DNA of 64,000 nucleotides from Acidobacteriota bacterium (GTDB taxonomy: Bacteria; Acidobacteriota; Terriglobia; Terriglobales; Acidobacteriaceae): positions 5,520 to 69,519 of the forward strand of contig JAJYFA010000001.1 in the NCBI GenBank assembly GCA_021790995.1. The letters are read 5' to 3'. The notes beneath the pieces are model-generated. The model was not told the DNA's origin, ran no database searches, and was given only the letters and a program-made list of their open reading frames with translations. The translations under genes and the position numbers were made by a program. Positions 10,061-54,199 of the stretch are shown one piece after another. The first letter of the stretch is position 1. Each line of letters begins with the position of its first letter.

Positions 10061-10085
10061 GCGCCTCCACCGAAAGGTGGAGCGC
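10061..10085 (-). other. GC-rich stem-loop between the amidase stop and the aroF start
   Basis: gcgcctccacc-gaaa-ggtggagcgc forms an 11-bp stem with one bulge and a tetraloop, lying 5-29 nt downstream of the amidase stop at 10090. No U-tract follows on the minus strand, so it may be a processing or attenuating structure rather than a classic terminator. Confidence 0.3.
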
Positions 10086-10089
10086 TGAA

Positions 10090-22288: not shown

Positions 22289-22932
22289 CAACGGAATCGA
22301 TCCGTGTACTGATCGTCGAAGACCATAATGTGGTTCGCGAGGGATTGGTGGCGCTGCTGAGGGTGGCAAGCGGTTTGGTGGTGGTGGGCGAAGCCGCGGA
22401 CGGCGTGGAGGCTATCGCGCAGTTTCGCAGGTGCCAGCCTGACATCACGCTGATTGACCTGCGGCTGCCTAGACTGAGCGGCGTGGACGTGATCGAGCGC
22501 ATCCGCATGGAGACGCCTCAGGCCCGGTTCATCGTGCTGACGACCTACGACGGCGACGAGGATATTTACCGTGCTCTGAAGGCAGGCGCGCGGGCGTATC
22601 TGCTGAAAGGAATGACCAGCGAGGATCTCATTAGCACTATCCACGCAGTCCATGCGGGCAAATCGCATATTCCCCCGGCCATCGCCGAGCGGCTGGCCGA
22701 GCGCATGGGCGCGCAGGATCTGACTCCGCGGGAGTTTGACGTGCTGGAACACATCGTCGGCGGCAACAGCAACAAGGAGATTGCAACTGCGCTGGGAGTC
22801 TCCGAGGCGACGGTGAAGACGCACATCAACAGTCTGCTGGGCAAGCTGGGTGTGACGGACCGGACGCAGGCGGCCACGGCGGCCATTCAGCGCGGTATTG
22901 TTCCGCTCGAATCGTTGAAGAGGCTCAAATGA
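22285..22932 (+). CDS. NarL/LuxR-family response regulator (REC + LuxR HTH)
   Basis: 215 aa with a GTGA overlap with the kinase stop. Contains IRVLIVEDHNVVREGL, PDITLIDLRLP and the HTH LTPREFDVLEHIVGGNSNKEIATALGVSEATVKTHINSLLGKLGV. Confidence 0.9.
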   Translation: MTTESIRVLIVEDHNVVREGLVALLRVASGLVVVGEAADGVEAIAQFRRCQPDITLIDLRLPRLSGVDVIERIRMETPQARFIVLTTYDGDEDIYRALKAGARAYLLKGMTSEDLISTIHAVHAGKSHIPPAIAERLAERMGAQDLTPREFDVLEHIVGGNSNKEIATALGVSEATVKTHINSLLGKLGVTDRTQAATAAIQRGIVPLESLKRLK

Positions 22933-23465: not shown

Positions 23466-23536
23466 CCGCACGGCCAATCCGGTCTCCACCTTTCGGTCGA
23501 TCCTGCTTTTCATTCTGTCCTCGTATACTTGCTGCG

Positions 23537-32200: not shown

Positions 32201-32873
32201 GACCTGCATCCTGCCACCAGGGAAGATTCGCGGAGAGCCGATCGGCCTCCTGCTTTTCGAGCAGGGCATTATCCACGCCGCGGAAGAAGACGGGCCGCAG
32301 CAGCCACTGCTGGCTTTGCGTGGGCGCGGCCGAGGCCGCGGTCTGATTCAACGCGGCGCCGGCCGATGCTGAGCCGCCGGTTACATCCAGCGCCAGCCCC
32401 GTTCCCTGATTGGTCAGCGCCGCATAGCCGTTGCTGGTGGCTGTCAGCGTCCATTGCTGCGTGGCCTTTGCCGGCGCACAGGTATTTTGCACGGTTGCCG
32501 TTGCCCCGCTGCTGGTTGCACTGTCGAGGCAGAGCCCGTTGGACAGATTGCTGATGGCCCAGTTTCCGCCTGGCAGATGCGTCAGAGCCCAGCGCTGGGT
32601 AAGGCTGGTAAAGCTGCGGTCCTCAAGAACAACCGCCGCGCCGGGCGTGGTTGAGCCGCCGTCCAGATCCGCCTGCAATCCTGAAAGCTGATTGATGAGA
32701 AAGTAGGTTTCCCCGTTGATCGGGCTGGCATCCGCGGGCTCCGTGGGTTGTTGCGCGCGTGCCGCAGCGGGCAACAGAACGGCGGCCGCCATCAGCGAGC
32801 GAACTACGCAGGCAGAGAGAGGGCGCAAGAAGAGTCGCGGCGTCTGCGGTGTGGATGCATGGCGGGAAGGCAT
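29283..32873 (-). CDS. Multidomain GH53 endo-beta-1,4-galactanase with two ricin-type (CBM13-like) lectin domains, MBG/Ig-like repeats and an unusual C-terminal TM hairpin
   Basis: I trimmed the ORF to the ATG at 32873, giving signal peptide ..RLFLRPLSACVVRSLMAAAVLLPAAARAQ. Ricin-like QxW blocks are QRWAL, QQWTL, QQWLL, QQWSI and QEWNL. GH53-like catalytic blocks are HGVNMVRIR, VDMVTIGNEVDTG, FLIEAGEHY and GMGMEYWDP. An MBG-like block is RIYGVANPAFAYIITGFVNGD...GTYSIG...ANYTFVLTPGTLTV. Ig-like repeats follow. Confidence 0.75.
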   Translation of the reverse strand: MPSRHASTPQTPRLFLRPLSACVVRSLMAAAVLLPAAARAQQPTEPADASPINGETYFLINQLSGLQADLDGGSTTPGAAVVLEDRSFTSLTQRWALTHLPGGNWAISNLSNGLCLDSATSSGATATVQNTCAPAKATQQWTLTATSNGYAALTNQGTGLALDVTGGSASAGAALNQTAASAAPTQSQQWLLRPVFFRGVDNALLEKQEADRLSANLPWWQDAGQTQDLLQMLKNHGVNMVRIRPTSAPPYQTLTLDGASAVPATCSGNGCYAETDDADLDLAKRAKQLGMSVELTLFFDGGSSSATPGAWSSDSLSELETDVYNYVKAEVEAYRSAGVMVDMVTIGNEVDTGFFGSLASPGTSFSNFAAVEQKAMQAVLDAASDTTLGPAIPPPLRCIHVTPAWNLTSFFTEAKNNSIPFDAVCQSYYPIYHGPLTSAQAAASNPNNQPVEQSVLTTAANSLGVPIFLIEAGEHYENGFDSNDPWYPATVAGQRQFLIDLNTVLKGLPGNLGMGMEYWDPEGVNTTSNGGGFTNGDGRTDGTYVWNGLTLFDNADTSGTSLSTATNYAAILSGADALGGKIDPTLAYALVNVATGEILGTAGLATATGTPLGTAAGDGGATLGQQWSITSNGDGYLQIANLGAAQGTTALVLDNSGTTTAGSAVALKDAAAGTASQEWNLVTAGNGDYTLVNKASGLVLAAAAGGVEQEAPSSTSIDWITPADKTQLWQIIPMHITEAATASQLSFASGTPSTATYGATLGTVQVNVLDNSGSLVLAPSTSVTLRITGPNSYTDNLTASSTNGVASFDLSGVTLSATGSYTLTASAAGLASTTASLSVTKATLAVTAQNASRIYGVANPAFAYIITGFVNGDPQSVVTGAPVLSTTAVTTSAPGTYSIGITTGTLAAANYTFVLTPGTLTVTTAPTTTVLTASAATVNPGQNVTLTATVTSSSTITPSGTVSFLSGATQLGSAALNAGGVATYTGTLSPGADSITAAYAANADFAASTSLVFLVTEPDFTLSANQNSLTLASGGNGSISLTLTPEGAYQGTATMSCSSTLAGLSCSFSPTSYTFNGSSAALTGTVTITSSSTMALLRPIPRHARRSFDGISLCWLPAGAILLLGGYDRKRLVRLAAFRRLLLVLLLLATAAGFTACGGGSGGGSGQQPVTGTVTITAAGSTAGVTQTAQIAVTVD

Positions 32874-32995
32874 GGGATTTCCTTTGTGCGGACGATGGAT
32901 GTGCGCAGACACATTCCTCTGTTCCAGTTGCTGAACGCAACGGAAGGGGCGCATTTCTGTGCGATTGTGAGGATACGAGCGTAAGTCAGGAACCG

Positions 32996-33015
32996 CATCC
33001 GACAAAAGGCGGATT
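32996..33015. promoter_or_regulatory. Candidate operator, copy 3 of the 20-bp palindrome AATCCG(A/C)CTTTTGTCGGAT(T/G)
   Basis: catccgacaaaaggcggatt; its reverse complement aatccgccttttgtcggatg matches 44411-44430 at 18/20. It lies 123-142 nt upstream of the GH53 ATG in the GH53/TBDR divergent region. Confidence 0.55.
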
Positions 33016-33186
33016 GGAGGGCAGGGAGCCGGATGCCGAGCGCATTTTGCCGCCGATGGACACGCGGCTGAAAAGCATGCAGCAAGCCGCTTGAGCCACA
33101 GAAGATGAGGCTAGAGAACCCGAGCTCAAAACCGGCAATCGTAAGAATACAAGAGATTTATTGCGGCCGCGCGAAAAATGAGGCAC

Positions 33187-33206
33187 AATCCGACTTTAGT
33201 TGGATG
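33187..33206. promoter_or_regulatory. Candidate operator, copy 1 of the 20-bp palindrome
   Basis: aatccgactttagttggatg matches 44411-44430 at 17/20. It lies 70-89 nt upstream of the TBDR GTG at 33276. It overlaps a possible promoter: TTGCGG at 33161-33166, a 17-nt spacer, and CACAAT at 33184-33189. Confidence 0.55.
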
Positions 33207-33275
33207 TATGTGCTAACACAGGAGAATACGCTCCTGGACGTGTTGAATTTTCTTTTTTGGGGAGGACATTGAAGC

Positions 33276-36200
33276 GTGAAAACGAATACAGTTCGATGGA
33301 TTGCCGCACTGGTGGTGACCCTTGCTGTTTCCGTGGCCTACGACGCCTACGGCCAGAACGCGAATTCAGGAGAGATCAAGGGACTGGTGACGGATTCCTC
33401 GGGTGCGGTGATTCCGGGAGCTTCCGTTACGATCCTGGATATCGGCACAGGGATCACGACAAAGACCCAAACCAACAATGCGGGTCTATACGATGTGCCG
33501 TCGTTGCTTACCGGCCAGTACAAGATCACTTTCAGTGCCCCGGGCTTCAGGGATGAGGTGCGGAATGGCATTACGCTGCAGGTGGCTACGATTGCGGTGA
33601 ATGCCCGCCTGCAGATTGGCCAGGCCTCGCAGCAGGTGGTGGTGACGGCAGAGGTCCCCTTGCTGCAAACAGAAGATTCGGCGCAGCACCTGGATCTCGA
33701 TGCCAAGGCGGTGCAGAACGCTCCCATCGTGGGCGGCGTCTGGTACAACGAACTCACCAATGAACTGCCCGGTGTGAACGGCGGCGGTGGCCAGGATGCT
33801 TCAGGGCAGGGAATTGGCGTAAACGGCACCGAGGGTTATTCGGGCACCTTTCTGATCGATGGTTCGATTGCCCAGCAGCCTCGCGATGCCAACGCTAGCG
33901 ACAACTATCCTCCGCCCGACGCCATCGGCGAGGTGAACATGCAGACCAGCAACTTCGGCGCGCAGTACGGGAACGGCGTGGCCGCGTTCAATGTGCTCAT
34001 CAAGAGCGGCACCAACAAATTTCACGGCTCGCTCTTCGAGTTCGATCAGAACGACGCGTTCAACGCAAGGAGTTATTTTGACCGGCCCCCGCTCATCGTT
34101 GCGCCGCTACACTGGAATGAATATGGCGGAAGCGTGGGCGGCCCCATCGTCAAGGACAAGCTGTTCTTCTTTTTCACGTTCCAGAACAATCCCAATACGT
34201 CTTCGGCGGTTTATACGACGACCGTGCCCACGCAAGGACAGAATGGGACGACCAACATGAATACCGGCTGCTTCCCTGGACCGGTGAAGAATCCCAACAC
34301 CGGGACGAACTATCCAGGCAATTGCATCAACACGGCGCTTGACCCGATCGCAGTCAACATTCAGAAGTACTATCCCGCGCCTAATTTTCTGCAATCGGGC
34401 AGCAATCCTTATTTGAACAACTACACGGCAGTTGCGGGCAGTCCAACTACTTCCAGATGGTATGTAGCAAAGGTGGACTATACGCCCACGCCGAAGCATC
34501 GCCTGTCGGCATCGTATATGTATTTCCCTATCAGCCTCGATTACAACGTCGACCAGTTCTGCTCGCTGGGTTTCGATTGCACCATAGGGAACAATTACAA
34601 CGAGGACGGCCAGGTTACGGATGTGTGGACGATCAACGATTCGATGGTGAACGAAGCCCGCATCGGCGGCGTGCGCGAGGTGGATAAGTATATTCCGCCG
34701 ACCTACGGCAAGGGCTATCCAACGACCATCGGCCTGGAGCCTACCTACGGAACAGACGCCCCTGCGGATATCTTTCCCGGCATTACGGTGAACAGCGGCG
34801 GAGGCGTTGGCGGAATAGGAATCAACGGCGGCATCCATGCGGTTCTGGCCGACGGGGCGCTTGTGGAATCGGATGTCTTCACACTGATCAAGGGACGGCA
34901 CACCATCAGGATGGGCGGTGAGTTCGACAAGAGCTACCAGAACTACACCGGCTGGGGCGACGTAAGTTCCGGTAACTTTGTCTTCAGCGGCGTATCGAGC
35001 GGCGTTCCCTATGCCGATTTTCTGCTGGGCGAGGTGTACGGCTGGTACGTATACGAGTATCCGGAGACAGGAGCGCGGATGTGGAACATGGGCGCTTTTG
35101 TCCAGGACGACTTTCAAGTTATGCAGAACCTGACCCTGAACCTTGGCTTCCGCTATCAGCGTCAAGGCGGATGGGGCGAGTCGCAGAATCGATGGGGCAC
35201 TTTCAGCCCCTCGGTGGTCAACACCGGCCAGTATGCGCCGCCAGGAACTCTCGGCGCCATGGTCTACGGTGGCCAGGACGGACGCAACACCATTCAGGAC
35301 GGCGTCAACCAGTGGGTGCCCCGCATCGGCTTCTCGTGGTCGCCGGCGCCGAAGTGGGCGGTTCGCGCCAGCTACGGAATCTCCGATCAGCCTTGGTCTG
35401 TAGATCCTTATACGGCGGCCTATGGAATCGGCTTGAATCCAAACGGGAGTAAGGGGTATGGCAACTCCGCGGCGTTTCTGCTCAAGAACGGACCCGGCCC
35501 CGGAGCCGTTGCTTTTCCCACGCTGGCGAATCTATCCAACTCGCAGTACAACTATGATGATGTGAACTATTATCCTCGGAAGCGGCAGAGCGCTTACTAT
35601 CAGGAAACGCTTTTGTCGGTACAACATGAACTGCCGCTGCAGATGCTGGTAGACGCCAGCTACGTGTTCACCAAGGGAACCCACCTGGGCTTTACTCGGG
35701 ACATCAACCAGGTCCCGGAGAGCCTGCTGTCCGGATACGGGACGAAATATACGAGTTGCTACAACGATCCGAGCGCGTACCCACTGTTTTGCTCCATCGA
35801 GGGGGCGTTCTTTGACGGCTACTCGAATTACAACGCGCTGCAATTGCGGGTTGAAAAGCGCACCTCGTATGGTCTGAACTTCATGTTTAACTATGCGTGG
35901 TCCAAGAGCATGGATACGGGCACGGGTTCGGGCAACAACGCGACTGCCGACGTGTGGCAGAACGCATTCGATGTGCCGGCCAATTACAGCCTGTCCGAAC
36001 TGGACATGAGAAACTCCATCAACGGACAAGCAACCTACGAGCTACCCTTTGGCGCCGGGAAGAGGCACGTGCTGCACGGTGTCACCAACGAAGTCCTGGG
36101 CGGCTGGCGTGCAACCGGCATCTTCCAGATCCACAGCGGCATTCCTTTCACGGCAAGAACCTCGGACAATGGCACGGACAACAGCGGCTCTGAGGCAACC

Positions 36201-36569
36201 CAGGGCGGCAGCGGCTATTCGTGGCTGCCCAATGTTGTGGCGAGCCCATCAGTGTCCAGCCCGTCGGTCAACGAATGGTTCAACCCGAGCGCATTTGCCA
36301 CTCCGGCGACCGGATCCTTTGGCAACGAGCGGCGCAACATGCTTATCGGGCCCAACTGGCGCGATCTGGACCTGAGCCTGGGCAAGTCCTTTCAGTTGAT
36401 TAAGGGAATGAATCTGGAAATTCGGGCGGATTCGTTCAATGCGTTCAACCACCCGAACTTCTCGCAGCCAAACACCTCGACGGGAACGGGTGTAGTGGGA
36501 GGCGGAGTGATTACCAGCACCGCCGCCGGCGGGCGCGATATTCAGTTGGGAGGCCGCCTGACCTTCTAA
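33276..36569 (+). CDS. TonB-dependent outer-membrane receptor with N-terminal carboxypeptidase-regulatory-like domain (SusC-like role), copy 1
   Basis: 1097 aa. The RBS ggggagga lies 9 nt upstream of the GTG. Signal peptide is MKTNTVRWIAALVVTLAVSVAYDAYGQ. The CarboxypepD_reg block is GEIKGLVTDSSGAVIPGASVTILDIGTGITTKTQTNNAGLYDVPSLLTGQYKITFSAPGF. The protein ends ...LGGRLTF with a terminal Phe. Confidence 0.9.
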   Translation: MKTNTVRWIAALVVTLAVSVAYDAYGQNANSGEIKGLVTDSSGAVIPGASVTILDIGTGITTKTQTNNAGLYDVPSLLTGQYKITFSAPGFRDEVRNGITLQVATIAVNARLQIGQASQQVVVTAEVPLLQTEDSAQHLDLDAKAVQNAPIVGGVWYNELTNELPGVNGGGGQDASGQGIGVNGTEGYSGTFLIDGSIAQQPRDANASDNYPPPDAIGEVNMQTSNFGAQYGNGVAAFNVLIKSGTNKFHGSLFEFDQNDAFNARSYFDRPPLIVAPLHWNEYGGSVGGPIVKDKLFFFFTFQNNPNTSSAVYTTTVPTQGQNGTTNMNTGCFPGPVKNPNTGTNYPGNCINTALDPIAVNIQKYYPAPNFLQSGSNPYLNNYTAVAGSPTTSRWYVAKVDYTPTPKHRLSASYMYFPISLDYNVDQFCSLGFDCTIGNNYNEDGQVTDVWTINDSMVNEARIGGVREVDKYIPPTYGKGYPTTIGLEPTYGTDAPADIFPGITVNSGGGVGGIGINGGIHAVLADGALVESDVFTLIKGRHTIRMGGEFDKSYQNYTGWGDVSSGNFVFSGVSSGVPYADFLLGEVYGWYVYEYPETGARMWNMGAFVQDDFQVMQNLTLNLGFRYQRQGGWGESQNRWGTFSPSVVNTGQYAPPGTLGAMVYGGQDGRNTIQDGVNQWVPRIGFSWSPAPKWAVRASYGISDQPWSVDPYTAAYGIGLNPNGSKGYGNSAAFLLKNGPGPGAVAFPTLANLSNSQYNYDDVNYYPRKRQSAYYQETLLSVQHELPLQMLVDASYVFTKGTHLGFTRDINQVPESLLSGYGTKYTSCYNDPSAYPLFCSIEGAFFDGYSNYNALQLRVEKRTSYGLNFMFNYAWSKSMDTGTGSGNNATADVWQNAFDVPANYSLSELDMRNSINGQATYELPFGAGKRHVLHGVTNEVLGGWRATGIFQIHSGIPFTARTSDNGTDNSGSEATQGGSGYSWLPNVVASPSVSSPSVNEWFNPSAFATPATGSFGNERRNMLIGPNWRDLDLSLGKSFQLIKGMNLEIRADSFNAFNHPNFSQPNTSTGTGVVGGGVITSTAAGGRDIQLGGRLTF

Positions 36570-36588
36570 CCGAGATGTATCGGCAACA

Positions 36589-36648
36589 GCAAACCGGGAT
36601 GTGCGTGGGCGCAGGGATGTGCCCCACATCCCGGTTTGCTTCTATTTT
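36589..36648 (+). terminator. Rho-independent terminator after TBDR copy 1
   Basis: gcaaaccgggatgtg (36589-36603) pairs perfectly with cacatcccggtttgc (36625-36639), a 15-bp stem. It is followed by ttctatttt. Confidence 0.7.
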
Positions 36649-36820
36649 GCCGGCGCAAACCTTAGCGCCATGTAGCTTACAATCACCTGGACAGGCCTTT
36701 CCTATGCGTTCCCGCACCGATCGAGACAAGCGTGAGTCCCCGATTCCCGAAGCGACGATCTCGACCCTAGATCCTTGTTTAATCCAGGGTGAGAGTGCGT
36801 GCTCTGTTGCCGCGCACGGT

Positions 36821-38032
36821 ATGTCGCGCATCCGCAAAGCGCCGGCCGCGATCTTTGCCCGGCTGCTTTGCATGGTTTTTGCAGCGCCGCTGCTCAGTGC
36901 GCAATCTGCTGCGCCCAGCGCGGCCCTGCGGGCGGATCTTGAGCGCGGACAAGCCGCCTTGCAGGCAAAGAACAACGCGCAGGCAGCGGAAGCGTTCCGC
37001 GCCGCGCTTGAACTGGACCCGCGCAATGTGGAGGCTCATGCCAACCTTGGGGCGATAGCCTTCTTCCAGGGAGACTGCCCAGCCGCGGAGCATGAGCTGC
37101 GCAGCGCGCTGCAATCCGCCCCCACACTGATCAAAGCGCAGGCGCTCATCGCCATCTGCGAGAAGCGCACAGGCAGTCGCGCGGCGCAGGCTGATATGGA
37201 GAGCGCCTTCGCCAAATTGAAGGATCCCAAGCTGCGCGTGCAAGTGGGCGTGGAACTGGCAGATCTCTACTATCAGAATGGCGACCTGGACCATACGCTT
37301 CCAGTGGTGCATGAGCTGGTGGCACTGGATCCGGACAATGTGGATCTGCTCTTTTTTGCGCAGCGTATCTACTCTGAGCTGGCAGACGACACCATGAATA
37401 AACTGGCGCTGCTGGCTCCAAACTCCGCGCGTATGCAGCAGTTGATCGCCGAGCGCCTGATCAATGGCGGTGATCTGCAGGGAGCAGTAGATCACTATCG
37501 CAAGGCTCTGGCGGAGGACCCGCGCCTGCCAGGGGTGCGTTTTGAACTGGCCGAAGCAATTCTTGAGGGCTCCAATGGACCCGGCGCGCAGGCGGCGGCA
37601 TTGCAGGAGTTGGATGCCGCCGTGAAGGCAGATGGAGACAGCCCCGGCATTGAATGTGCCTTCGGTCGCATCGCCCTGCTGCGAGGCAAAAACGATGAGG
37701 CCTATACCCATTTTGAACGCGCTTACCGGATGGACCCCAATAATGTTCAGGCGCAGCTTGGGTTGGGCAAGATTCTTTCAGACGAGAATAAGCCAGAGGA
37801 GGCATTGCGCTATCTGCGCCAGGCCGTCGCTGCTGACCCGATGAACGCGAGCGCGCATTATCGGCTGGCCCGCGTTTACCATGCGCTGCATTTTGCAGAC
37901 AAGGAGCGCGAACAAATCAAGTTGTATCAGGAGATTCGCCAGGCCGATGATCGTGTGGCGCAGTTGTACGGCCAGATGAATCGCAAGCCGGAGCCGCAGG
38001 ACGCCATGCCCGGCGAAGAACAGCCGCAATGA
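36821..38032 (+). CDS. Secreted TPR-repeat protein (paralog of 54200-55546)
   Basis: I trimmed the ORF to the ATG at 36821, giving signal peptide MSRIRKAPAAIFARLLCMVFAAPLLSAQS. It is TPR-rich throughout. The C-terminal YRLARVYHALHFADKEREQIKLYQEIR parallels YKLAQIFRKLHDQKQAQAALDHFLQMR in the paralog. Its stop overlaps the kinase start. Confidence 0.8.
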   Translation: MSRIRKAPAAIFARLLCMVFAAPLLSAQSAAPSAALRADLERGQAALQAKNNAQAAEAFRAALELDPRNVEAHANLGAIAFFQGDCPAAEHELRSALQSAPTLIKAQALIAICEKRTGSRAAQADMESAFAKLKDPKLRVQVGVELADLYYQNGDLDHTLPVVHELVALDPDNVDLLFFAQRIYSELADDTMNKLALLAPNSARMQQLIAERLINGGDLQGAVDHYRKALAEDPRLPGVRFELAEAILEGSNGPGAQAAALQELDAAVKADGDSPGIECAFGRIALLRGKNDEAYTHFERAYRMDPNNVQAQLGLGKILSDENKPEEALRYLRQAVAADPMNASAHYRLARVYHALHFADKEREQIKLYQEIRQADDRVAQLYGQMNRKPEPQDAMPGEEQPQ

Positions 38033-41000
38033 GGATTTGGCGATCCGTGGTGCGGAGCGAGTGCGATTTTGTGCGCGGCGGCGCGCGGGCGGAGCGATGG
38101 CTGCCTGGCTTGTGCAGTCTGATTGTCGCGGCATGCATGGCGTACTCTGCGTATGCTTCCGCGCCCTCCGGTTTTACAACCAAGGTTTGGCAAACCCAGG
38201 ACGGGCTGCCGGAACAGACCGTGCAGGCCTTTGCGCAGACTCCCGACCATTATTTATGGATAGGAACGACTGGCGGCCTGTTGCGCTTTGATGGGGTACA
38301 CCTGACCGTCTTTGATGACGAGAACACGCCTGCCCTGACAGGAAATAGTGTCTTTTCGCTGATGGTGTCGAGCGACGGCAGCCTATGGATTGGCACCGAA
38401 GGAGGCGGCCTGCTGCGCTACGCCGGCGGCAGGTTTCATGCCTACGGGATCAAGGATGGGTTGAGCGATGGATTTGTCCGCGCCTTGCTGCAGGATCGTC
38501 AGGGAACCATTTGGGTCGGTACAGATAATGGTTTGCTGCGTTTTGCCGCGGGACGGTTCGAGCGCATCGACGGGGTAAATGGGACACCTGCCATTGCCGT
38601 CCATGCCATTGCCCAGGATCACAGCGGGGGGTTGTGGGTAGGCGGCTCGCGCCTTCTGCGCTTTAGCGGCGATTCCGCGCACGAATATCATTTGGGCGGC
38701 AGCGCCAGTCAGAATCGTGTCAAATCGATTCTTGAAACGTCGGATCACACTGTTTGGGTGGGCACTGTTTCAGGCTTGTACAGGCTGCGCGCGGGCAGAA
38801 AAGCCTTCGAGCGCGTTCCGGGTATTCAGGGCACGGTGCGGGTACTGCGGCAAACGACCGACGGGGCTTTGTGGATTGGCATGATCGGTGAAGGCATCCG
38901 CACCATCCGCGGCGCGGAATCGGTGGCCATGAGCGCCCCTGACGCATTGCCCAGCAATACGGTGCTGAATATCTTTGAGGACGACGAGCGCAACATCTGG
39001 ATTGGCACCCAGGCCGGCATGGTGCGCCTCACGAGCACGCCGACGCGCATTTTTCCCCTGCCCAAGGATGTCGACTCCGACTTCGGCACCATCTTTGCCG
39101 ATCGCGACGGAACGCTTTGGGTAGTCTCCATGGATGTCTTTCGCATGCGTGACGGCGTGATCCGGCCGTACACATTTCCCGGCCTCGGCCGCGTGCCCGT
39201 GCGTAATGTGTTTCGTGACCGTGCAGGCGCGCTGTGGATCGGCACCGATGGCGAGGGCATCATCCGCATGGATAAGGGGAAAAATCTCTGGATGACAAGC
39301 AAGAATGGGCTGGTGAATAATTTCATCCGCGCCATACTGCAGAGCCGTGACGGAAGCATGTGGATCGCAACCGACGAGGGGGTGAGCCACTGGACCTCGC
39401 ATGGGTTCATCAATTACCGCATGCTCGACGGACTGTCGTACTTCAGCACCCGGGCGCTGCTCGAGGACCGCAACGGCGATCTGTGGATCGGCACGGATCG
39501 CGGTTTGAACCGCCTGCACAACGGCGTGTTCGTCCACGATGCGGCCACCGAAGGGCTAAGCCAGAAGAAGGTATGGGCCATCCATGAAGACAAGGACGGG
39601 GGAATATGGTTCGGCACGCGCGATGATGGGCTGTACCGTTGGAAGCAGGGCAAGCTGACCCATTACACAACGGATCAGGGCTTGGCGAGCAACAGCATCT
39701 ATCAGATCCTCGAAGATGCCAGGGGCGGCTTCTGGATCAGCGGACCAAACGGAATTTCACTGCTCAACCGGCACGAGCTGGATGCCGCTGCCGATCATCC
39801 ATCGCAGCATCTGGCGCTTACGTTTTATGGCATCTCCAATGAAGTGAATGCGGCCCAGATCTACGGCGGCAGGCAGCCGTCCGGCTGTCTCGATGCACAG
39901 GGAGAGGTCTGGTTTCCCACCAATCGCGGCCCGCTGCACATTCTCAAAGTGAGTGCGCAGAGTCTACCCCTGCCCCCGGTTGTGATCCACGATGTGCTGG
40001 TAAATGGACGGCCTGTGCCTGTCAACTCGCCCGTAGTGATCAAGCCCGGCAACAGCCGCCTGGAAATTGCCTACGCGCCTATCCTTCTGCGCTCGCAGGA
40101 CGGCGTGCGCTTTCGTTATCAGCTACAGGGTTTTGACGCCAACTGGATCGATGCCGGCACGCGCCGCGTTGTGTCGTACACCAATCTGCCTGCCGGCAAA
40201 TACACCTTCCGCGTGGCTGCGTTCGAGGTGAATAACCCGAAAGCTATCTCGCAAGCTGCCTTGGCCATCGTGCAACAGCCGCACTTTTACCGCACGCCGT
40301 GGTTCATAGTCTCCTGCGTTCTGCTGCTGGCGGCCATCGTTCTGGGCATCTATCGATTCAGGCTGTGGCAGATCAAGATGCGCTTTGAAGCGGTTCTGGA
40401 CGAACGCGGGCGACTGGCGCGCGAGATGCATGATACGGTCATTCAGGGATGCGTAAGTGTCTCTGCGCTGATGGAGGCGCTCTCCAGCGTCAACCAGGGT
40501 GGCGATCCATTGACGCAGAACCTGGTGGAGCATGCGCGCACCCAACTGCGGAGCACGATTGATGAAGCCCGCGAGGCGGTGTGGGACCTTCGTTGTGACA
40601 AAGCCGCTGAAAACTCCTTTGGACCGGCCCTGCAGCGGATGGCAGAGCAGATCGTCATGGAGTCGGGCATTCCGATCAGTTGCGAGCTGACGGGTAAGCC
40701 GTTCGTGCTCAATCAATTTGCGACGCATGAGCTGCTAATGATGGCAAGAGAAGCAGTCTATAACGCCGTGCTCCACGCCAAACCCGGCAGAATTGAAGTG
40801 CACGCCTGTTTTTCCCGTAACGGCCTGACTCTGGAGGTGCGTGACGACGGTTCGGGCTTCGACCCCGCAGCCATTCGTGCACACAAGGACCATCATTATG
40901 GACTGGTCGGCATGCGGGAGCGGGTGCAGTCCGTCGGCGGGCGCTTTCTCCTGCGAAGCGCCGCAGGCAAGGGAACGGAAATCCAAATCCAGATTCCGCG

Positions 41001-41040
41001 CAAGGTTTCAATTGCGCGAAACGTAATGCAGAGTGCCTGA
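38029..41040 (+). CDS. Sensor histidine kinase with Reg_prop propeller + Y_Y_Y sensor, HisKA_3 and HATPase_c (paralog of 19271-22288)
   Basis: 1003 aa with an ATGA overlap with the TPR gene. A representative repeat is QDGLPEQTVQAFAQTPDHYLWIGTTGGLLRFDG. The Y_Y_Y block is VRFRYQLQGFDANWIDAGTRRVVSYTNLPAGKYTFRVAA. The H-box is RLAREMHDTVIQG and the ATPase region is EVRDDGSGF...YGLVGMRERV. Confidence 0.9.
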   Translation: MRIWRSVVRSECDFVRGGARAERWLPGLCSLIVAACMAYSAYASAPSGFTTKVWQTQDGLPEQTVQAFAQTPDHYLWIGTTGGLLRFDGVHLTVFDDENTPALTGNSVFSLMVSSDGSLWIGTEGGGLLRYAGGRFHAYGIKDGLSDGFVRALLQDRQGTIWVGTDNGLLRFAAGRFERIDGVNGTPAIAVHAIAQDHSGGLWVGGSRLLRFSGDSAHEYHLGGSASQNRVKSILETSDHTVWVGTVSGLYRLRAGRKAFERVPGIQGTVRVLRQTTDGALWIGMIGEGIRTIRGAESVAMSAPDALPSNTVLNIFEDDERNIWIGTQAGMVRLTSTPTRIFPLPKDVDSDFGTIFADRDGTLWVVSMDVFRMRDGVIRPYTFPGLGRVPVRNVFRDRAGALWIGTDGEGIIRMDKGKNLWMTSKNGLVNNFIRAILQSRDGSMWIATDEGVSHWTSHGFINYRMLDGLSYFSTRALLEDRNGDLWIGTDRGLNRLHNGVFVHDAATEGLSQKKVWAIHEDKDGGIWFGTRDDGLYRWKQGKLTHYTTDQGLASNSIYQILEDARGGFWISGPNGISLLNRHELDAAADHPSQHLALTFYGISNEVNAAQIYGGRQPSGCLDAQGEVWFPTNRGPLHILKVSAQSLPLPPVVIHDVLVNGRPVPVNSPVVIKPGNSRLEIAYAPILLRSQDGVRFRYQLQGFDANWIDAGTRRVVSYTNLPAGKYTFRVAAFEVNNPKAISQAALAIVQQPHFYRTPWFIVSCVLLLAAIVLGIYRFRLWQIKMRFEAVLDERGRLAREMHDTVIQGCVSVSALMEALSSVNQGGDPLTQNLVEHARTQLRSTIDEAREAVWDLRCDKAAENSFGPALQRMAEQIVMESGIPISCELTGKPFVLNQFATHELLMMAREAVYNAVLHAKPGRIEVHACFSRNGLTLEVRDDGSGFDPAAIRAHKDHHYGLVGMRERVQSVGGRFLLRSAAGKGTEIQIQIPRKVSIARNVMQSA

Positions 41041-41042
41041 AC

Positions 41043-41687
41043 ATGGATGAGCAGAAACAAATAAAGGTGCTGATTGTCGATGACCATCCGATTATGCGCA
41101 TCGGCATTGCGGCTATCATCAATGCCCGCGCCGACATGGTAACGGTGGCTGAGGCCGGAAGCGGGGAGAGCGCCGTGGACTTGTTTGAGAAGTATCGTCC
41201 GGATATCACCCTCATGGATCTGCGCCTGCCCGGGATCAGCGGCGTTGAAACCATTCGCAGGATCCGCGCGCGGCATCCGGAGGCTTGTTTTGTGGTGCTC
41301 ACCACCTACGAGGGCGACGAGGACATTTATCAGGCGCTGGAAGCCGGGGCGCGCGCGTACGTCATCAAAGGCATGCAGCATGAGGCGCTGGTGGATGCTT
41401 TGCGCCGGGTGTATGCAGGCGGCCGCTTTCTTCCCTCGCCGGTCTCGCGCGCCCTGGCTGCGCGCACCCCGGATTCGGACCTGAGCGCACGCGAGCGGGA
41501 GGTCCTGCAACTGCTGGCGCAGGGCGAAAGCAACAAGAGGATCGCATTCCTGCTGGGCATAACGGAGGCGACCGTCAAGTGTCACGTTAGTGTGATCCTG
41601 ATGCGGCTGCAGGTGGAAGATCGCACGCAGGCCGTGGTGGCGGCTCTGCAGCGCGGACTGGTTCACCTGCCGCGCGAAGCGCACTAA
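41043..41687 (+). CDS. NarL/LuxR-family response regulator (paralog of 22285-22932)
   Basis: 214 aa. Contains IKVLIVDDHPIMRIGI, PDITLMDLRLPGISG and the HTH LSAREREVLQLLAQGESNKRIAFLLGITEATVKCHVSVILMRLQV. Confidence 0.9.
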   Translation: MDEQKQIKVLIVDDHPIMRIGIAAIINARADMVTVAEAGSGESAVDLFEKYRPDITLMDLRLPGISGVETIRRIRARHPEACFVVLTTYEGDEDIYQALEAGARAYVIKGMQHEALVDALRRVYAGGRFLPSPVSRALAARTPDSDLSAREREVLQLLAQGESNKRIAFLLGITEATVKCHVSVILMRLQVEDRTQAVVAALQRGLVHLPREAH

Positions 41688-41731
41688 CCGCGGTCGGTTG
41701 TCAGTATCCCTTGCTGCTCAATGCGAAGCCC

Positions 41732-44371
41732 CTATGCTTCCATGGTGTTCAGGAGCAAGCTGGCAGAGCGCAGATTGGGCGAGGATGCAGTAATCCTGAC
41801 TGCCCCGGCCCGTGCGGTGGCTTGTACGATCGCCAGGCACATTCCGTTGAATGCTTGCCGGTGAGCGCCCTTGTAGCCCTCGTGGCTGAAGGGGTTGCCG
41901 TTGTCCACGCCGATCAACCTGCCTTCACCCTCCACCGCAAACGCGATCTCGTTCTCTGCAAGGGGGACCATGCGGCCCTGTTCATCCAGAACCTGTACAA
42001 CGAGATGAGAGACATCGCGCCGATCCGCGGCAAGGATCATCCGGTCTGCCGATAGCGCAATCGCAACCGGAGAGCCGGTGGTCGCTACTGCGGCGGTAGA
42101 GACCACGCTGCCGTTCTTAACGGCAACAGCTTTCAACTCCCCAGGCTCGTAGGGAACATCCCACGACAGATGCAGGTCGGCAGTGGTTCTGAGAGTCTTT
42201 GCGCGCGCAGGGAAGTTGCCATAAGTTCCTTCCATGCCGATGCGCGGAAACTCATATCCCTTTACGCCGAAGGATTTGCCGTTCAGGAAAAGCTCCACGG
42301 TATCGCAATTGGTGTAGCAGGTCACAGGAATGACCTGTCCTTCTTTCCCCTGCCAGTTCCAGTGCGGAAACAGATGCAGCATGGGCTTGGCCGCCCACTG
42401 GCTCTGATAGAAGTAGAAGCTGTCTTTCTTGAATCCGCAGGTGTCGATGGCGCCGCACAGGGAGCTCTTCATGGGCCAGAATGCCTCGCCGAGATAATCG
42501 ATGCCCGTCCACATGAAGTCTCCGGCGACATAATCGCGGGAGCCGACAAACTTCCATAGCTGCTCTACGTCGATGTTCAGATTCTGCTGGAGAAGCATCA
42601 TGTGCCGCGGCGCCCGCTCTGCGGAGGCAAGCAGGCTGCTATAGTCGCCGCGGATACCGCCCATGCCTACGCTTTCCGTGCCGATGACGCGGCGCATGGG
42701 AAATGCGGCGTGGTCGATGCTGTAGTAGAGCTCCGCCCGTTCATGCCAGCGGTCCACGTAGTTGTAGCCCACGATATCCAGCTCGGCAAGGAACTCCGGG
42801 CGGACGCGATTGGAGAGCGGGTCGGAGGCAATGCGGTCGCAGGCCGCGGTTACCGGCCGCGTGGGATCTTCGCGGTGAAAGATATTGAGCAGTCCGCGCA
42901 GAGTCTGCGCTCCGTCGGGCGCGGACTGATCGCCAATCTCGTTGCCGGCGCTCCAAAGAATGATCGAAGGATGATTGCGGTCGCGGTGCAGAAAATTGGT
43001 CAGGTCACGCTCGTGCCACTCATCGAAGTACAGGCTGTAGCCATAGCGAATCTGCTCTTTGGGAACCTTCCACTCATCGAAGGCCTCGGCCATGACCAGA
43101 AAGCCCATCCTGTCGCACAGATCCAGAAACTCGGTTGCAAAGGGATTATGGCTGGTGCGAATTGCATTGCAGCCCATCTCGCGCAAAGTCTCCAGCCGGC
43201 GCTCCCACACGCGCTCTGGAACCGCCGCGCCCATGCAGCCGGCTTCATGGTGAATGCACACCCCATTCAGCTTGATGTGCTCTCCATTCAGTTGAAAGCC
43301 GCGATCCGCATCGAAGACGGCATCGCGGATTCCGATGGGCGTGTCATATACGTCCACCACGCGGCCCGATTCGCGCACCGTGTTGCGCACCGTGTAGAGA
43401 TAGGGACTGACAGGCGACCACAGGCTGGGCTTCTCCAAAGTCATCTGCTGCACGAACTCAAAGCTGTCATTTGCTTCCACGTTTTGCACGTTGACCGTGC
43501 TTTGAACTGTCTTTCCATCGCGATCGAGAATGGCTGTCATGAGCGTGCATTGTGCCGCGCCTCTACCTCCGTTGGCAATCCGGGTTCGTATTTCGACCGC
43601 AGCGGCATCCTTTGACACGCGCGGGCAGAACACAAACGTTCCCCATTGCGCCACGCGGAGGGGATGCGTGACCTGCAGCCAGGTATGCCGGTAGATGCCG
43701 GACCCGGAGTACCAGCGACAGTTGGTCTGGCGCGAGTTATCCACGCGCACCGCCACCACATTTTCGCCGCCGAAGTTCAGGCGCCCCGTGAGTTCATAGA
43801 AGAAGGGAACGTAGCCATAGGGGCGCAGACCGAGAGAGTGGCCGTTGATCCATACCTCGCTGTTCTGGTAGACGCCGTCGAGTTGGAGCGTGACGATCCT
43901 GTCGCGATACGCCGCGGGCACATGAAATCTCTTGCGATACCACCCGATTCCCGTGGGCATATAGCCCCCCGGACCGCTGGACGCTGCGTCCTCATCCATA
44001 GGCCCCTCGATGCTCCAGTCATGGGGCAGATTCACATCGCGCCACCCTCCGTCAACAAAGTCCTGCAGATGTGCATTTGCGGCGTCGCCTTTCATAAACT
44101 TCCATTGGAAGTCAAAGCTCTGCCTGATCCTTTCTGCAGCGACATCGCCGGCCAGCAAGTATTCCATCGGGCGAAGATACGGAGCCGCGGTTGCCAGCGC
44201 CGCGCCGCAGGCGGCTTGGGTCAGCACTTCGCGCCGGCTAAAAAGCAGGCCGGATGTTTGACTTGCACTCGACAGGAGAGCTTTTCCGTGGCCCATTCTT
44301 GATGTACGATCCTTCCCGCTGGCGAAAGCAAACCGCATGTGTGGAAATGAGTTGTTCTGCGACAAAGACAC
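41732..44371 (-). CDS. Glycoside hydrolase family 2 (beta-galactosidase-like)
   Basis: GH2 blocks are WRDVNLPHDWSIEG, GIGWYRKRF, LQLDGVYQNSEVWINGHSLG, NAIRTSHNP and NHPSIILWSAGNEIGD. A Tat-like SRREVLTQAACGAALATAAP suggests the real start may be ATG 44338 or 44296 rather than 44371. Confidence 0.85.
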   Translation of the reverse strand: MSLSQNNSFPHMRFAFASGKDRTSRMGHGKALLSSASQTSGLLFSRREVLTQAACGAALATAAPYLRPMEYLLAGDVAAERIRQSFDFQWKFMKGDAANAHLQDFVDGGWRDVNLPHDWSIEGPMDEDAASSGPGGYMPTGIGWYRKRFHVPAAYRDRIVTLQLDGVYQNSEVWINGHSLGLRPYGYVPFFYELTGRLNFGGENVVAVRVDNSRQTNCRWYSGSGIYRHTWLQVTHPLRVAQWGTFVFCPRVSKDAAAVEIRTRIANGGRGAAQCTLMTAILDRDGKTVQSTVNVQNVEANDSFEFVQQMTLEKPSLWSPVSPYLYTVRNTVRESGRVVDVYDTPIGIRDAVFDADRGFQLNGEHIKLNGVCIHHEAGCMGAAVPERVWERRLETLREMGCNAIRTSHNPFATEFLDLCDRMGFLVMAEAFDEWKVPKEQIRYGYSLYFDEWHERDLTNFLHRDRNHPSIILWSAGNEIGDQSAPDGAQTLRGLLNIFHREDPTRPVTAACDRIASDPLSNRVRPEFLAELDIVGYNYVDRWHERAELYYSIDHAAFPMRRVIGTESVGMGGIRGDYSSLLASAERAPRHMMLLQQNLNIDVEQLWKFVGSRDYVAGDFMWTGIDYLGEAFWPMKSSLCGAIDTCGFKKDSFYFYQSQWAAKPMLHLFPHWNWQGKEGQVIPVTCYTNCDTVELFLNGKSFGVKGYEFPRIGMEGTYGNFPARAKTLRTTADLHLSWDVPYEPGELKAVAVKNGSVVSTAAVATTGSPVAIALSADRMILAADRRDVSHLVVQVLDEQGRMVPLAENEIAFAVEGEGRLIGVDNGNPFSHEGYKGAHRQAFNGMCLAIVQATARAGAVRITASSPNLRSASLLLNTMEA

Positions 44372-44410
44372 TTCTACTTAATGAATTCGAACACATACCA
44401 ACTCCCGTGA

Positions 44411-44430
44411 AATCCGACTTTTGTCGGATT
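44411..44430. promoter_or_regulatory. Candidate operator, copy 2 (the most symmetric) of the 20-bp palindrome
   Basis: aatccgacttttgtcggatt has perfect 8-bp arms around a 4-nt centre. It sits in the divergent region between GH2 (minus strand) and the GH-A enzyme (plus strand, ATG 44540). Confidence 0.55.
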
Positions 44431-44539
44431 GATGCCGCAGATTGATGGTATAGAGTGGCTGCGGAGAACAGATGGAAGAAAATTTGTCCGGAAATTTCCG
44501 GCGGATGGGATTTCAGCCCCTGCCGCAGAAGGAAATCAC

Positions 44540-46657
44540 ATGCGTATTGCTCTGGTTGCTGCTCTCACACTCGCCGCTGGCGGACTGACATTGCAATCAC
44601 GCGCTCAAAGCGCCGGCGATATGGTTCCCTTCAGCGTGGATTACCAGCGTGCGCTGCAGGCGCGCTCGCCGGTGGATGTGTCATTCCTTCTCGACGCTCC
44701 GGCGGGCAGGCATGGCTTCCTGAAGGTCGTCAACGGCCACCTGGCAACGGGCGATGGACAGCGCATTCGCCTATGGGGCGTCAATATCACTGACTGGGCC
44801 AAGGGATCGCGGCAGATTCCCGCAAAGAAGGATGCCGCCTTTTGGGCGGCCACACTGGCGCGCTTCGGCGTGAATTGCGTGCGCTTCCAGTTTCTTGACC
44901 TGGAGGCGCCGCGCGGTCTGATTGCCGCTGGCCGTCCCGATACGCGCAGCCTCGATCCCGAGCAGCTCGATCGTGAGGACTATTTCATCGCGCAGTTGGA
45001 GAAACGCGGCATCTATATTGACTTCAACCTTCTGGTCGGCCGGCCATTCAAGGCGGGTGATGGCGTGGAGGACGCCAATCTGCTCCACGGGGGCGCCAAG
45101 GGAACTTCGCTCTTCGATCGCCGCATGATCGAGATGCAAAAGGAGTACGCGCGGCAACTGCTGACGCACCGCAATCCCTACACCGGGCTTAACTATACCG
45201 ATGATCCTGCGGTGGGCCTGGTGGAGATCAATAACGAAAATGCGCTCAACATCGGCTTCCGCCCTCCTTCACCGTTTTATGGCAAGGAGCTGACGGAGAT
45301 GTACAACCTGTGGCTCGCGGCGCACAGAACGCCGGCGCAGATTGCCCGGTTGCGCGCGATTGCCGGCGCATCGGGCGATCAGGCTGAAGTGCCGCTCATG
45401 TTCTGGCGAGGCCAGGCCGCTTCAGCGCCTCCCGAGCGGTTCTACGCGGAGGCTGAGTTTTACAACGACACGCAGCGCAACTACTTTGCAGAGATGCAAA
45501 ACTACCTCGAGCAGACGCTCGGCTTGCATGCGCTGGTGATTGCCACTGCCGATCACAGCCACTCCGGCAGCGGCTATCCGATTCTAATGGCGACCATCGG
45601 CAGTGACGTCGTCGATGGGCACACGTATTGGGAACACCCGGAAATGTACGTGCGCAAATCGCCAATGGTGGATGATCCATCCAACTCCACAGTCGTTGAG
45701 CTCTCCCGTTCCGCTATTGCAGGCAAACCATACACGGTCAGCGAGGTAAACAATCCCTTTCCGAATGATTTCGACAGCGAGGGAATTCCAATTCTGGCGG
45801 CGTATGGCGCAATGCAGGACTGGGACGCGATCCTCTGGTACACCTTCGAACCCAAGCAGGACACGGCTTGGAAGCCATATATTGGCGATCCATTTGATAT
45901 TTCTCAGGATCCAGTGAGGATGTCTGAACTGGCGGCAGGCGCGCTGCTCTTTCTGCGCGGCGATGTCGAGAAGGCGCAGCGTGTTATCGCGCGCTCGTAC
46001 ACACAGCAGCAAGTCTTCGACAGCATGTTGCTCCCATCCGCTGAGCGTCCATATTTCACTCCTGGATTTCCGTTGCAGTTGCCCCTTGAGCATGAGATGC
46101 GCATCTCTTCCTTCACTGGACCGCCCACGCAGAGATTCGCACAGTCTGCCATGCCTGATCCGATCCGCTCTGATACCGGGCAACTGGCCTGGTACCACTC
46201 CGCGCCAGGGGCTGGGATGGTGACTGTCGATTCTCCAAGAACGCAAGCCCTGATCGGATTTGTCCGCGCTCATGCGCAGACAGACAGCAATCTGGCCGCT
46301 GCGGTGGAGAACAAATTCTGCGTGCTTCAACTCAGCTCGCTGGAGGCGAAGCCTATTGCCAATGCCTCCAAGCTATTGTTGATTGCCGGCAGCCGGGTGG
46401 AGAATACCGGCCAGCGCTGGAACTCAGCGAATACCGACGTGACGCAGTGGGGCGTAACGCCTACCTTGATGGAACCGGTGCGTGGAACCTTGCTGCTGCG
46501 TCATATGTCGCCGGCGCGCGCTGTCTCCTTGCAGGCCATGGATGGAGCCGGACAGCCGCTTGGTCCTCCAGTCGCTGCCATCCGTACCGCAGCAGGGTGG
46601 AAGATGCCGCTCGGCAATACAGTGACAACATGGTACGAAGTGACTGTGACACGATAG
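44540..46657 (+). CDS. Secreted clan GH-A (TIM-barrel, GH5-like) glycoside hydrolase; family not assignable by eye
   Basis: I trimmed the ORF to the ATG at 44540, giving signal peptide MRIALVAALTLAAGGLTLQSRAQS. The stretch RIRLWGVNITDW...FGVNCVRFQFLD....DPAVGLVEINNENAL contains the NE acid/base motif of clan GH-A. The locus context is glycosidases. Confidence 0.55.
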   Translation: MRIALVAALTLAAGGLTLQSRAQSAGDMVPFSVDYQRALQARSPVDVSFLLDAPAGRHGFLKVVNGHLATGDGQRIRLWGVNITDWAKGSRQIPAKKDAAFWAATLARFGVNCVRFQFLDLEAPRGLIAAGRPDTRSLDPEQLDREDYFIAQLEKRGIYIDFNLLVGRPFKAGDGVEDANLLHGGAKGTSLFDRRMIEMQKEYARQLLTHRNPYTGLNYTDDPAVGLVEINNENALNIGFRPPSPFYGKELTEMYNLWLAAHRTPAQIARLRAIAGASGDQAEVPLMFWRGQAASAPPERFYAEAEFYNDTQRNYFAEMQNYLEQTLGLHALVIATADHSHSGSGYPILMATIGSDVVDGHTYWEHPEMYVRKSPMVDDPSNSTVVELSRSAIAGKPYTVSEVNNPFPNDFDSEGIPILAAYGAMQDWDAILWYTFEPKQDTAWKPYIGDPFDISQDPVRMSELAAGALLFLRGDVEKAQRVIARSYTQQQVFDSMLLPSAERPYFTPGFPLQLPLEHEMRISSFTGPPTQRFAQSAMPDPIRSDTGQLAWYHSAPGAGMVTVDSPRTQALIGFVRAHAQTDSNLAAAVENKFCVLQLSSLEAKPIANASKLLLIAGSRVENTGQRWNSANTDVTQWGVTPTLMEPVRGTLLLRHMSPARAVSLQAMDGAGQPLGPPVAAIRTAAGWKMPLGNTVTTWYEVTVTR

Positions 46658-53861: not shown

Positions 53862-54199
53862 ATGCAAATTCCCTCCAGTTCTATGGCCTCCGGTCGGGGT
53901 CTTCTCCCGTGGAGCTTGATTTTTTGCCGCCATCGTTACTGTGGCGCCATTTACTTCAGCGCAAACCCAAAGCAGGCGGCTGATTGCATCGGGTTGCTAC
54001 GCTCTCCGCTCAGTCCAAATGTTGTTGAGTGTCTCCGTCATGTACCCTCGGCAGATGTACCGGATTGTGCAGGAGCGCGCCGGCCTGGTAAACGCTTACC
54101 CATCTGCCGCCTGAACGCCCCTTCGTCTTCGTGTCGCATTGCCCATCTCCTCCCGCCGCCTTCCACGCCGAGCGGCTGTCGCCTCAAGCCCCAACTCGT

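Follow-up and report, generated by a model that had tools for sequence, protein, structure and literature searches.

A predicted operator of a NarL/LuxR-type response regulator in an acidobacterial galactan locus

A 64,000-nucleotide stretch of an Acidobacteriota genome (contig JAJYFA010000001.1, positions 5,520 to 69,519; hereafter the window, to which all coordinates without a locus name refer) carries a 20-bp palindrome that occurs three times between genes with predicted functions in the degradation and uptake of beta-1,4-galactan. This dyad is in all probability, and with good though not complete confidence, the operator of RR1, a NarL/LuxR-type response regulator encoded within the locus, and of closely related regulators; RR1 would activate the galactan-degradation and uptake genes. 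We infer from sequence comparisons that this protein binds the dyad and activates rather than represses, and likewise where transcription starts and which sugar acts as inducer. As a bacterial control element the dyad is of an ordinary kind, but it is unusually well defined in this instance. Genes flanking the three copies code for two glycoside hydrolases (GH53 and GH2), a protein of an uncharacterised family that we term GH-A, and, in a four-gene operon, a TonB-dependent transporter (TBDR1), a TPR-repeat protein, a sensor histidine kinase (HK1), and RR1.

Three copies of the dyad

The consensus operator AATCCGAC-TTTn-GTCGGAT is present in three copies in the window. Site 1 is located at 32996-33015 on the minus strand, where it reads AATCCGCCTTTTGTCGGATG and points toward the gene for GH53. 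Site 2, located at 33187-33206 on the plus strand with the sequence AATCCGACTTTAGTTGGATG, points toward the TBDR1 operon. Site 3 (AATCCGACTTTTGTCGGATT, plus strand, 44411-44430) is a perfect 8+4+8 dyad that the divergently oriented promoters of GH2 and GH-A have in common. Site 1 and site 2 are unidirectional, lie 191 bp apart inside the 402-bp gap between the genes for GH53 and TBDR1, and point away from each other; site 3 is positioned mid-way in the 243-bp gap between the GH2 and GH-A genes. When compared with site 3, site 1 differs at two positions and site 2 at three.

An original prediction, made from the window sequence by itself, had reported three copies at these coordinates, all of them intergenic (two in the GH53/TBDR gap and one in the GH2/GH-A gap), with pairwise identities of 17-18 of 20 positions. 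All three were found there, and a recount returned the same identities. The prediction had also claimed that no copy precedes the GH43/TBDR2 block or GH28, and a scan of the window likewise revealed none.

Three matches with three or fewer mismatches are present in the window, compared with zero in each of 100 dinucleotide-preserving shuffles, and a chance origin of the three copies is excluded. If only the arms are scored, the next-best position in the window has four mismatches and resides in coding DNA. Isolated half-sites in coding DNA (26108 and 28128) are single and do not form a dyad.

Promoter architecture

A sequence logo was built from 107 non-identical sites aligned on the dyad. The resulting consensus is A-A-T-C-C-G-A-C-T-T-T-n-G-T-C-G-G-A-T-(T/G), in which C8, G13, and positions 3-5, 9-10, and 17-19 are near-invariant. 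The TTTn spacer is not palindromic, and therefore the dyad has a direction. When all sites are oriented by this T-run, the sequence TAnnnT starts at position 41 in 65 of the 107 sites and at position 42 in 30 of them. Such a −10-like element is thus found 21-22 bp after the dyad in 95 sites, compared with zero to four sites at every other register from 21 to 54. The element emerged only after the sites were anchored on the dyad. No −35 element is conserved over the same 107 sites (~0.1 bit at positions 21-24). On the assumption that transcription starts ~7 nt after the −10 element, the centre of the dyad falls near −42 relative to starts that are predicted rather than mapped. The fixed distance from dyad to −10 element argues for class II activation, and the placement of a NarL-family dimer at about −42 is a textbook mechanism.

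A dimer at this location could act in the opposite sense, with RR1 or its unphosphorylated form repressing transcription by blocking the −35 region, such that induction reflects relief of repression. The overlap of the dyad with the place of a −35 element is compatible with this possibility and speaks against activation, and some promoters do carry a −35-like hexamer with 4/6 matching positions that begins at dyad position 19 (TTGATG at site 3, TTCGCA in the group B loci described below). However, the absence of a conserved −35 element from the 107 sites is typical of activator-dependent promoters. Furthermore, the polarity of the dyad and its strict 21/22-bp distance are what contact with RNA polymerase on one face of the helix would need, whereas a roadblock would not require either. 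Sites for NarL/LuxR-family proteins at about −42 are also classically activating (PMC4471428). We consider the repressor alternative to be quite improbable.

The register established above yields a predicted promoter for each transcription unit. For GH53, the predicted −10 element is TATCCT (32970-32975, minus strand), which occupies positions 41-46 counted from site 1 and implies a start at ~32963. The register statistics place the predicted −10 element of the TBDR1-TPR-HK1-RR1 operon at 33227-33232 (TACGCT, plus strand; implied start ~33239) and that of GH-A at 44451-44456 (TAGAGT, plus strand; implied start ~44463). On the other side of site 3, the GH2 promoter has a predicted extended −10 element, TGt-TCGAAT (44385-44393, minus strand, with TCGAAT at 44385-44390), that mirrors the GH-A −10 element and implies a start at ~44378. 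The corresponding sequence gTGtT[CT]GAAT is found at positions 37-46 in all 15 of 15 divergent GH2/GH-A loci, and a second box at the mirror position on the A-rich side is present at 31 of the 107 sites.

A similar arrangement is observed in a set of loci that we call group B. In these cases, TTCAAT on the A-rich side faces an operon for a GH-A-like protein, a kinase, and a regulator, and the T-rich side carries TACCAT, which is directed at a small receiver-like open reading frame (ORF). It appears that one dyad serves two back-to-back promoters both at site 3 and in group B. A strict link between the direction of the T-run and the nearest gene had been considered, and group B seemed to contradict it; the matter was settled by the mirror-image −10 boxes on both sides of the dyad.

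The small stand-alone ORF of group B is represented by L022:4246-4716 (minus strand), with equivalents in L019, L023-L025, L029, and L064. Its product is 25% identical to the receiver domain of RR1, and the N-terminal acidic pair is replaced. An HD-GYP/GAF protein is encoded beyond this ORF, which is absent from the window.

A probable protein-binding site rather than a hairpin

The palindrome could instead represent a nucleic-acid hairpin, for example a terminator, an attenuator, a repetitive extragenic palindromic (REP)-like repeat, or an RNA stability element. Site 3 is able to fold into a stem of 8 bp with a loop of 4 nt, and in 8 of 37 low-GC metagenome stretches that are discussed below a T-run comes directly behind the 20-mer, as in an intrinsic terminator. 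However, a scan of both intergenic regions revealed no T-run and no terminator call at the sites in the window, and the dyad yielded no match in Rfam. The sites are also located upstream of predicted transcription starts, between divergent gene starts and not at gene ends. Sequence variation points in the same direction: among 66 distinct 20-mers, 67 arm changes are one-sided and three are two-sided, and only 14 of the 66 are perfect dyads. Because the changes are mostly one-sided, selection acts not on pairing but on the sequence of each half. The RNA hairpin or terminator interpretation was dropped because compensatory changes are lacking, because of where the sites are located, and because Rfam yielded no match, and we attach almost no weight to it.

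Association of the dyad with the regulator and its target genes

A scan with RR1, retaining one genome per species, provided 80 loci with 10-kb flanks. These loci were searched for the arms ATCCGAC/GTCGGAT, allowing two or fewer mismatches. The best RR1 match, with 98% identity, is from a Terracidiphilus metagenome-assembled genome (MAG). The remaining loci are from Acidobacteriaceae and Bryobacterales, and the regulators from other phyla are less than 60% identical to RR1. The dyad travels with orthologues of the regulator. Among the 43 loci with an RR1 identity of at least 72%, 40 carry the dyad, with a total of 99 sites in 777 kb scanned. For identities of 63-72%, it is present in 4 of 13 loci (six sites in 223 kb), and below 63% in 1 of 24 loci (428 kb), where the single site resides in coding DNA and lacks the T-rich spacer.

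Gene order varies among these loci. Some loci have the gene for GH2 behind the regulator and in the same orientation, and others have an inverted transporter operon or a GH-A gene ahead of the kinase. Despite this shuffling, dyads are found upstream of the genes for GH53, TBDR1, GH2, and GH-A, as well as upstream of the kinase-regulator operon, and many are located directly 3ˊ of the regulator stop codon. Orthologues of site 1 reside upstream of GH53 in 12 of the retrieved loci (L001-L004, L008, L009, L012, L014-L016, L018, and L056), and site 2 is conserved upstream of TBDR1 orthologues. Six loci without GH2 carry a gene for a GH35 beta-galactosidase behind the dyad. This replacement by a non-orthologous enzyme argues for the breakdown of beta-galactosides and galactan as the shared theme.

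The reverse search proceeded from motif to genes. Metagenome contigs were scanned for AATCCGACTTTNGTCGGAT, and the counts that follow apply to the 120 matching stretches listed. Among these, 83 stretches have a GC content of at least 54%, and homologues of the locus genes are carried by 64 of them. High-GC stretches of at least 8 kb (n=33) include locus genes in 31 cases and a kinase or regulator in 22. The recognition helix E[AS]TVK[CS]HVS[VT]IL is present in 32 of the 34 regulators encoded near the dyad, and the motif-first search finds the same clade of regulators and the same target genes as the search that began with RR1.

The other 37 stretches are low in GC and represent unrelated contexts, with terminator-like hairpins followed by a T-run in AT-rich contigs. 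The bare 20-mer is consequently not diagnostic outside this lineage. In ORF-poor contigs of ~47% GC, the 20-mer forms part of a repeated element, AATCCGACTTTCG[TC]CGGATTATACGG, which is often present in two copies ~145-170 bp apart. Low-GC occurrences of the repeat or terminator-like type were noted in L082, L085, L100, L112, L129, L163, and L184, and in L089, L092, L099, L107, L113, L124, L140, and L188.

The regulator and its paralogues

RR1 is encoded at 41043-41687 on the plus strand and consists of a receiver (REC) domain (Pfam Response_reg, 6e-28) followed by a GerE/LuxR-type helix-turn-helix (HTH) domain (Pfam GerE, 1.1e-18) with the recognition helix EATVKCHVSVIL. Its N-terminus is the receiver domain, and Pfam reveals no autoinducer-binding domain at that end. 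The best relatives of known structure are VraR, NarL, ChrA, and DevR/DosR (DosR 3c3w, E=3e-32). The original prediction had named this protein as the obvious candidate for a dimeric LuxR/NarL-type regulator that fits the dyad, and had proposed that it autoregulates its own operon and controls a small regulon of GH53, TBDR1-TPR-HK-RR, GH2, and GH-A. A binder of this type is borne out by the canonical NarL/VraR/DosR-like REC and GerE architecture of RR1, and by the searches in both directions described above. Every computational test applied agrees with this proposal, and within one genome the assignment of the dyad to this particular regulator rather than to a close paralogue is provisional.

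Several observations weigh against an exclusive and activating role for RR1 at these sites. The 80 loci were reached through RR1, which is a biased direction, and thus the metagenome scan alone is independent. No site was seen in the DNA scanned for three of the 43 loci with an RR1 identity of 72% or more. Regulators that are 67-70% identical to RR1, have the same recognition helix, and are paired with kinases only 43-56% identical to HK1 also adjoin exact sites. The operator is moreover shared by no fewer than two classes of kinase, with 66-73% and 43-56% identity to HK1, that are accompanied by the same regulator helix. Five loci (L040-L044) in which the helix is identical to that of RR1 carry only degenerate variants such as AATCCTACTTTCTGCCGATT (~6720 and ~60-3690), behind which TATAGT is retained with the correct spacing. 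Finally, a simple sigma-70 scan of both intergenic regions in the window called no promoter, a result that fits a promoter without a −35 element and that gives it no independent support.

Some of these findings raise the possibility that the dyad is a genuine operator bound by a factor encoded elsewhere, such as a paralogue closely related to RR1 or a global regulator of carbohydrate genes. Same-helix paralogues paired with different kinases do adjoin identical sites, and one genome can hold several such regulators, as in the two MAGs that contain L015 plus L042 and L011 plus L036. However, apart from RR1 the 64 kb encodes just one DNA-binding protein, RR2 (22285-22932), which belongs to a second kinase/regulator pair (19271-22932). 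This second regulator is 50% identical to RR1, has a different recognition helix, and is associated with a distinct dyad of its own. In addition, the sites track RR1 orthologues through rearrangements, often immediately behind the regulator gene. A binder from outside the locus is unlikely in our estimation, and RR1 itself is the favoured candidate.

Variant half-sites were observed in paralogous or more distant loci (L040-L044, L048/L049, and L057-L059), including AATCCTACTTTCTGCCGATT, GATCCTACTTTTGGCAGATG, GATCCTACTTTAGATGGATT, and CATCTGACTTTAGTCAGAGT. These loci retain the layout of a dyad, 20-21 bp, and TAnnnT. Variation at position 6 and at positions 13-16 may serve as a discriminator between paralogues.

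A second dyad with the same grammar and the half-site CTCCACC is also present in the window. One copy, GCTCCACCTTTCGGTGGAGG followed by TAAACT, and another, TCTCCACCTTTCGGTCGATC followed by TATACT, were identified. The copy at 23483-23502 (plus strand) lies directly 3ˊ of the HK2-RR2-orf178 operon and upstream of a gene for an FG-GAP/ASPIC protein (23537-25435), and the copy at 10064-10083 (minus strand) lies upstream of a DAHP-synthase-like gene (9104-9994). In the syntenic locus L078, whose RR2 orthologue is 82% identical, the dyad is found at the same place, with occurrences at positions 11720, 14759, and 14849. This dyad probably serves RR2 as its operator and would then form a parallel to the case of RR1. 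The lead is a weak one, given that the DNA scanned from two of three RR2-type loci (L070 and L073) yielded no copy.

More broadly, and with somewhat less than even confidence, we propose that Acidobacteriaceae and Bryobacterales possess an expanded family of kinase and NarL-type regulator pairs, resembling split versions of a hybrid two-component system (HTCS), that use one promoter grammar in which the half-site encodes the acting paralogue. The grammar could then consist of a 7-bp half-site, C-TTTn-G, a second half-site, 20-21 bp, TAnnnT, and an optional mirror promoter, although we put this forward tentatively. Equally provisional is the code that might accompany it, in which ATCCGAC denotes RR1, ATCCTAC/..GCCGAT the paralogues with 67-70% identity, and CTCCACC the second pair. 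If this proposal is true, it could become possible to read glycan regulons, together with uncharacterised enzyme families such as GH-A, directly from metagenomes that contain uncultured soil Acidobacteria.

Proposed mechanism

According to our model, the beta-propeller/Y_Y_Y domain of HK1 would sense a galactan-derived oligosaccharide in the periplasm, and the kinase would phosphorylate RR1. An RR1 dimer would then bind the operator with one HTH domain on each 7-bp half-site, and the conserved lysine of its TVK motif would read the invariant C8/G13 positions in the manner of DosR K182. The bound dimer would be centred ~42 bp upstream of the transcription start, over the position of the missing −35 element, and because of this overlap it would be expected to recruit RNA polymerase (class II activation). 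The genes switched on would be those for GH53, the TBDR1-TPR-HK1-RR1 operon, and GH2 plus GH-A, with the last two controlled from one shared dyad. The four genes of the operon are separated by 5, −4, and 2 bp, and thus site 2 implies positive autoregulation.

Comparison with known regulatory systems

The closest parallel for the dyad sequence is found in DosR/DevR, a NarL-family regulator from Mycobacterium tuberculosis. Both systems have a 20-bp palindrome for a dimer of GerE-type HTH domains, and the central 10 bp, GACTTTAGTC, is identical between the acidobacterial dyad and the DosR consensus oligonucleotide TTAGGGACTTTAGTCCCCAA (PMC5999986). In DosR, K182 forms hydrogen bonds with A12 and G13, and the core contacts involve K179, K182, and N183 (PMC5999986). 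The lysine that contacts G13 (K182, TVK) is conserved in RR1, but RR1 has Ala and Cys where DosR has K179 and N183, according to a residue alignment that was inferred from primer sequences in that report and from our own alignments. These two replacements fit the different bases in the outer half-sites, which are ATCC in the acidobacterial dyad and AGGG or TGGG for DosR. DevR's C-terminal domain, as a dimer, reads G4G5G6A7C8T9 in each half (PMC3177182). The match is limited, however, to A7C8T9 and the centre, and positions 3-6 are TCCG in the acidobacterial sites rather than GGGG. DosR promoters always have two to four tandem boxes (PMC3177182), whereas each promoter in the window has one dyad. 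The two systems also differ in signal, which is hypoxia or nitric oxide (NO) for DosR and a glycan in our proposal, and they belong to different phyla.

The geometry of the predicted promoters is reminiscent of the lux box, a 20-bp palindrome that is centred at −42.5 and is activating (PMC4471428). The acidobacterial system would share with it a 20-bp inverted repeat centred ~42 bp upstream of the start (as derived here from the −10 register), an overlap with a poor or absent −35 element, and binding by a dimer of LuxR-type HTH domains. However, the sequences are unrelated, and RR1 is controlled by receiver phosphorylation and not by an acyl-homoserine-lactone-binding domain. To our knowledge, neither the TTTn polarity nor the sharing of one dyad by mirror-image promoters is a feature of lux boxes. 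Given the lack of an autoinducer domain, the different outer half-site, and the single boxes, the dyad belongs to neither the lux box family nor the Dev box family.

At the level of gene content, the locus resembles the Bacteroides galactan locus BT4667-BT4673, which includes GH2, GH53, SusC/D/E, and a hybrid sensor (PMC5238430). Both loci encode GH53 and GH2 enzymes, a TonB-dependent transporter, and a sensor with periplasmic Reg_prop/Y_Y_Y domains (PMC5238430). In the acidobacterial locus, however, the kinase (HisKA_3) and the NarL-type regulator are products of separate genes. The Bacteroides HTCS combines the kinase, the receiver, and an AraC-type output in one polypeptide. Two further differences concern the transporter, which is of the acidobacterial CarboxypepD_reg/OMP_b-brl_4 type and has a TPR protein beside it instead of SusD. 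None of the papers in the collection searched describes an acidobacterial system composed of a Reg_prop kinase and a LuxR-type regulator.

Genes of the galactan locus and the GH-A family

The gene map of the original prediction agrees with Pfam, with the correction that the GH-A protein starts at 44540 and not at 44541. The endo-beta-1,4-galactanase of family GH53 is encoded on the minus strand (29283-32873), with its ATG at 32873 chosen by reading the sequence, and the protein also includes ricin-type lectin, MBG, and Ig-like domains. On the opposite strand, Pfam matches identify the outer-membrane transporter TBDR1 (33276-36569; CarboxypepD_reg, Plug, and OMP_b-brl_4), a TPR-repeat protein as the first gene 3ˊ of the transporter (36575-38032), and HK1 (38029-41040), which has periplasmic Reg_prop beta-propellers and a Y_Y_Y domain joined to HisKA_3 and HATPase_c domains. 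The sensor portion of HK1 is homologous to those of the Bacteroides hybrid two-component sensors (4a2l, E=1.5e-45; 3v9f, E=3.6e-38), and its kinase core is homologous to DesK/VraS. A GH2 glycosidase, which is probably a beta-galactosidase, is assigned by Pfam on the minus strand (41732-44296), with an ATG at 44296 read from the sequence.

The gene for the TPR protein stays beside that for TBDR1 in orthologous loci that have been rearranged. Within the window, a TPR-repeat neighbour is present at both transporters of the CarboxypepD_reg/OMP_b-brl_4 type, after TBDR1 (33276-38032, plus strand) and before TBDR2 (50028-55546, minus strand). We speculate that this transporter and TPR pairing may be what corresponds in Acidobacteria to the SusC/SusD pair.

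Acidobacteria rank with the most abundant bacteria in soil, and we are aware of almost nothing that is known about their regulation of plant-polymer breakdown. The findings provide a defined predicted regulon for beta-1,4-galactan use that comprises GH53, GH2 or GH35, a TonB-dependent transporter with its TPR partner, and a sensor pair, together with a predicted operator and predicted transcription starts that are conserved in dozens of uncultured genomes. The results also suggest that the motif grammar could help to annotate other acidobacterial glycan loci.

The GH-A protein (44540-46657, plus strand; 705 aa) has no Pfam match, and searches of Pfam, NCBIfam, and PDB sequences returned nothing significant. 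The family has at least 2891 homologues, all of which are named 'hypothetical protein'. Weak similarity to GH5 mannanases is evident around N232-E233, and these two residues and E402 are invariant in the family. An AlphaFold model built from 28 close homologues is poor (pLDDT 49), and a second homologue search added no diversity. With this low-confidence model, Foldseek retrieved only clan GH-A enzymes at low TM-scores, which is suggestive of a clan GH-A (beta/alpha)8 glycosidase, and this is probably what the protein is. Its predicted co-regulation with GH53 and GH2 in many genomes makes GH-A a candidate new family of galactan-active glycosidases. The family is thereby placed in a galactan context, which offers a lead for enzyme discovery.

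Outside the galactan locus, a long row of minus-strand genes occupies positions 190-11499 of the window. This row includes genes for a periplasmic-binding-domain protein, an L-PSP (RidA) family protein, a Reg_prop protein, and a YncE-like propeller with a CCP_MauG haem domain. It also includes genes for an FG-GAP/ASPIC protein, a protein with a hydrazine-synthase-alpha-like middle domain, a DAHP-synthase-family enzyme, and an amidase.

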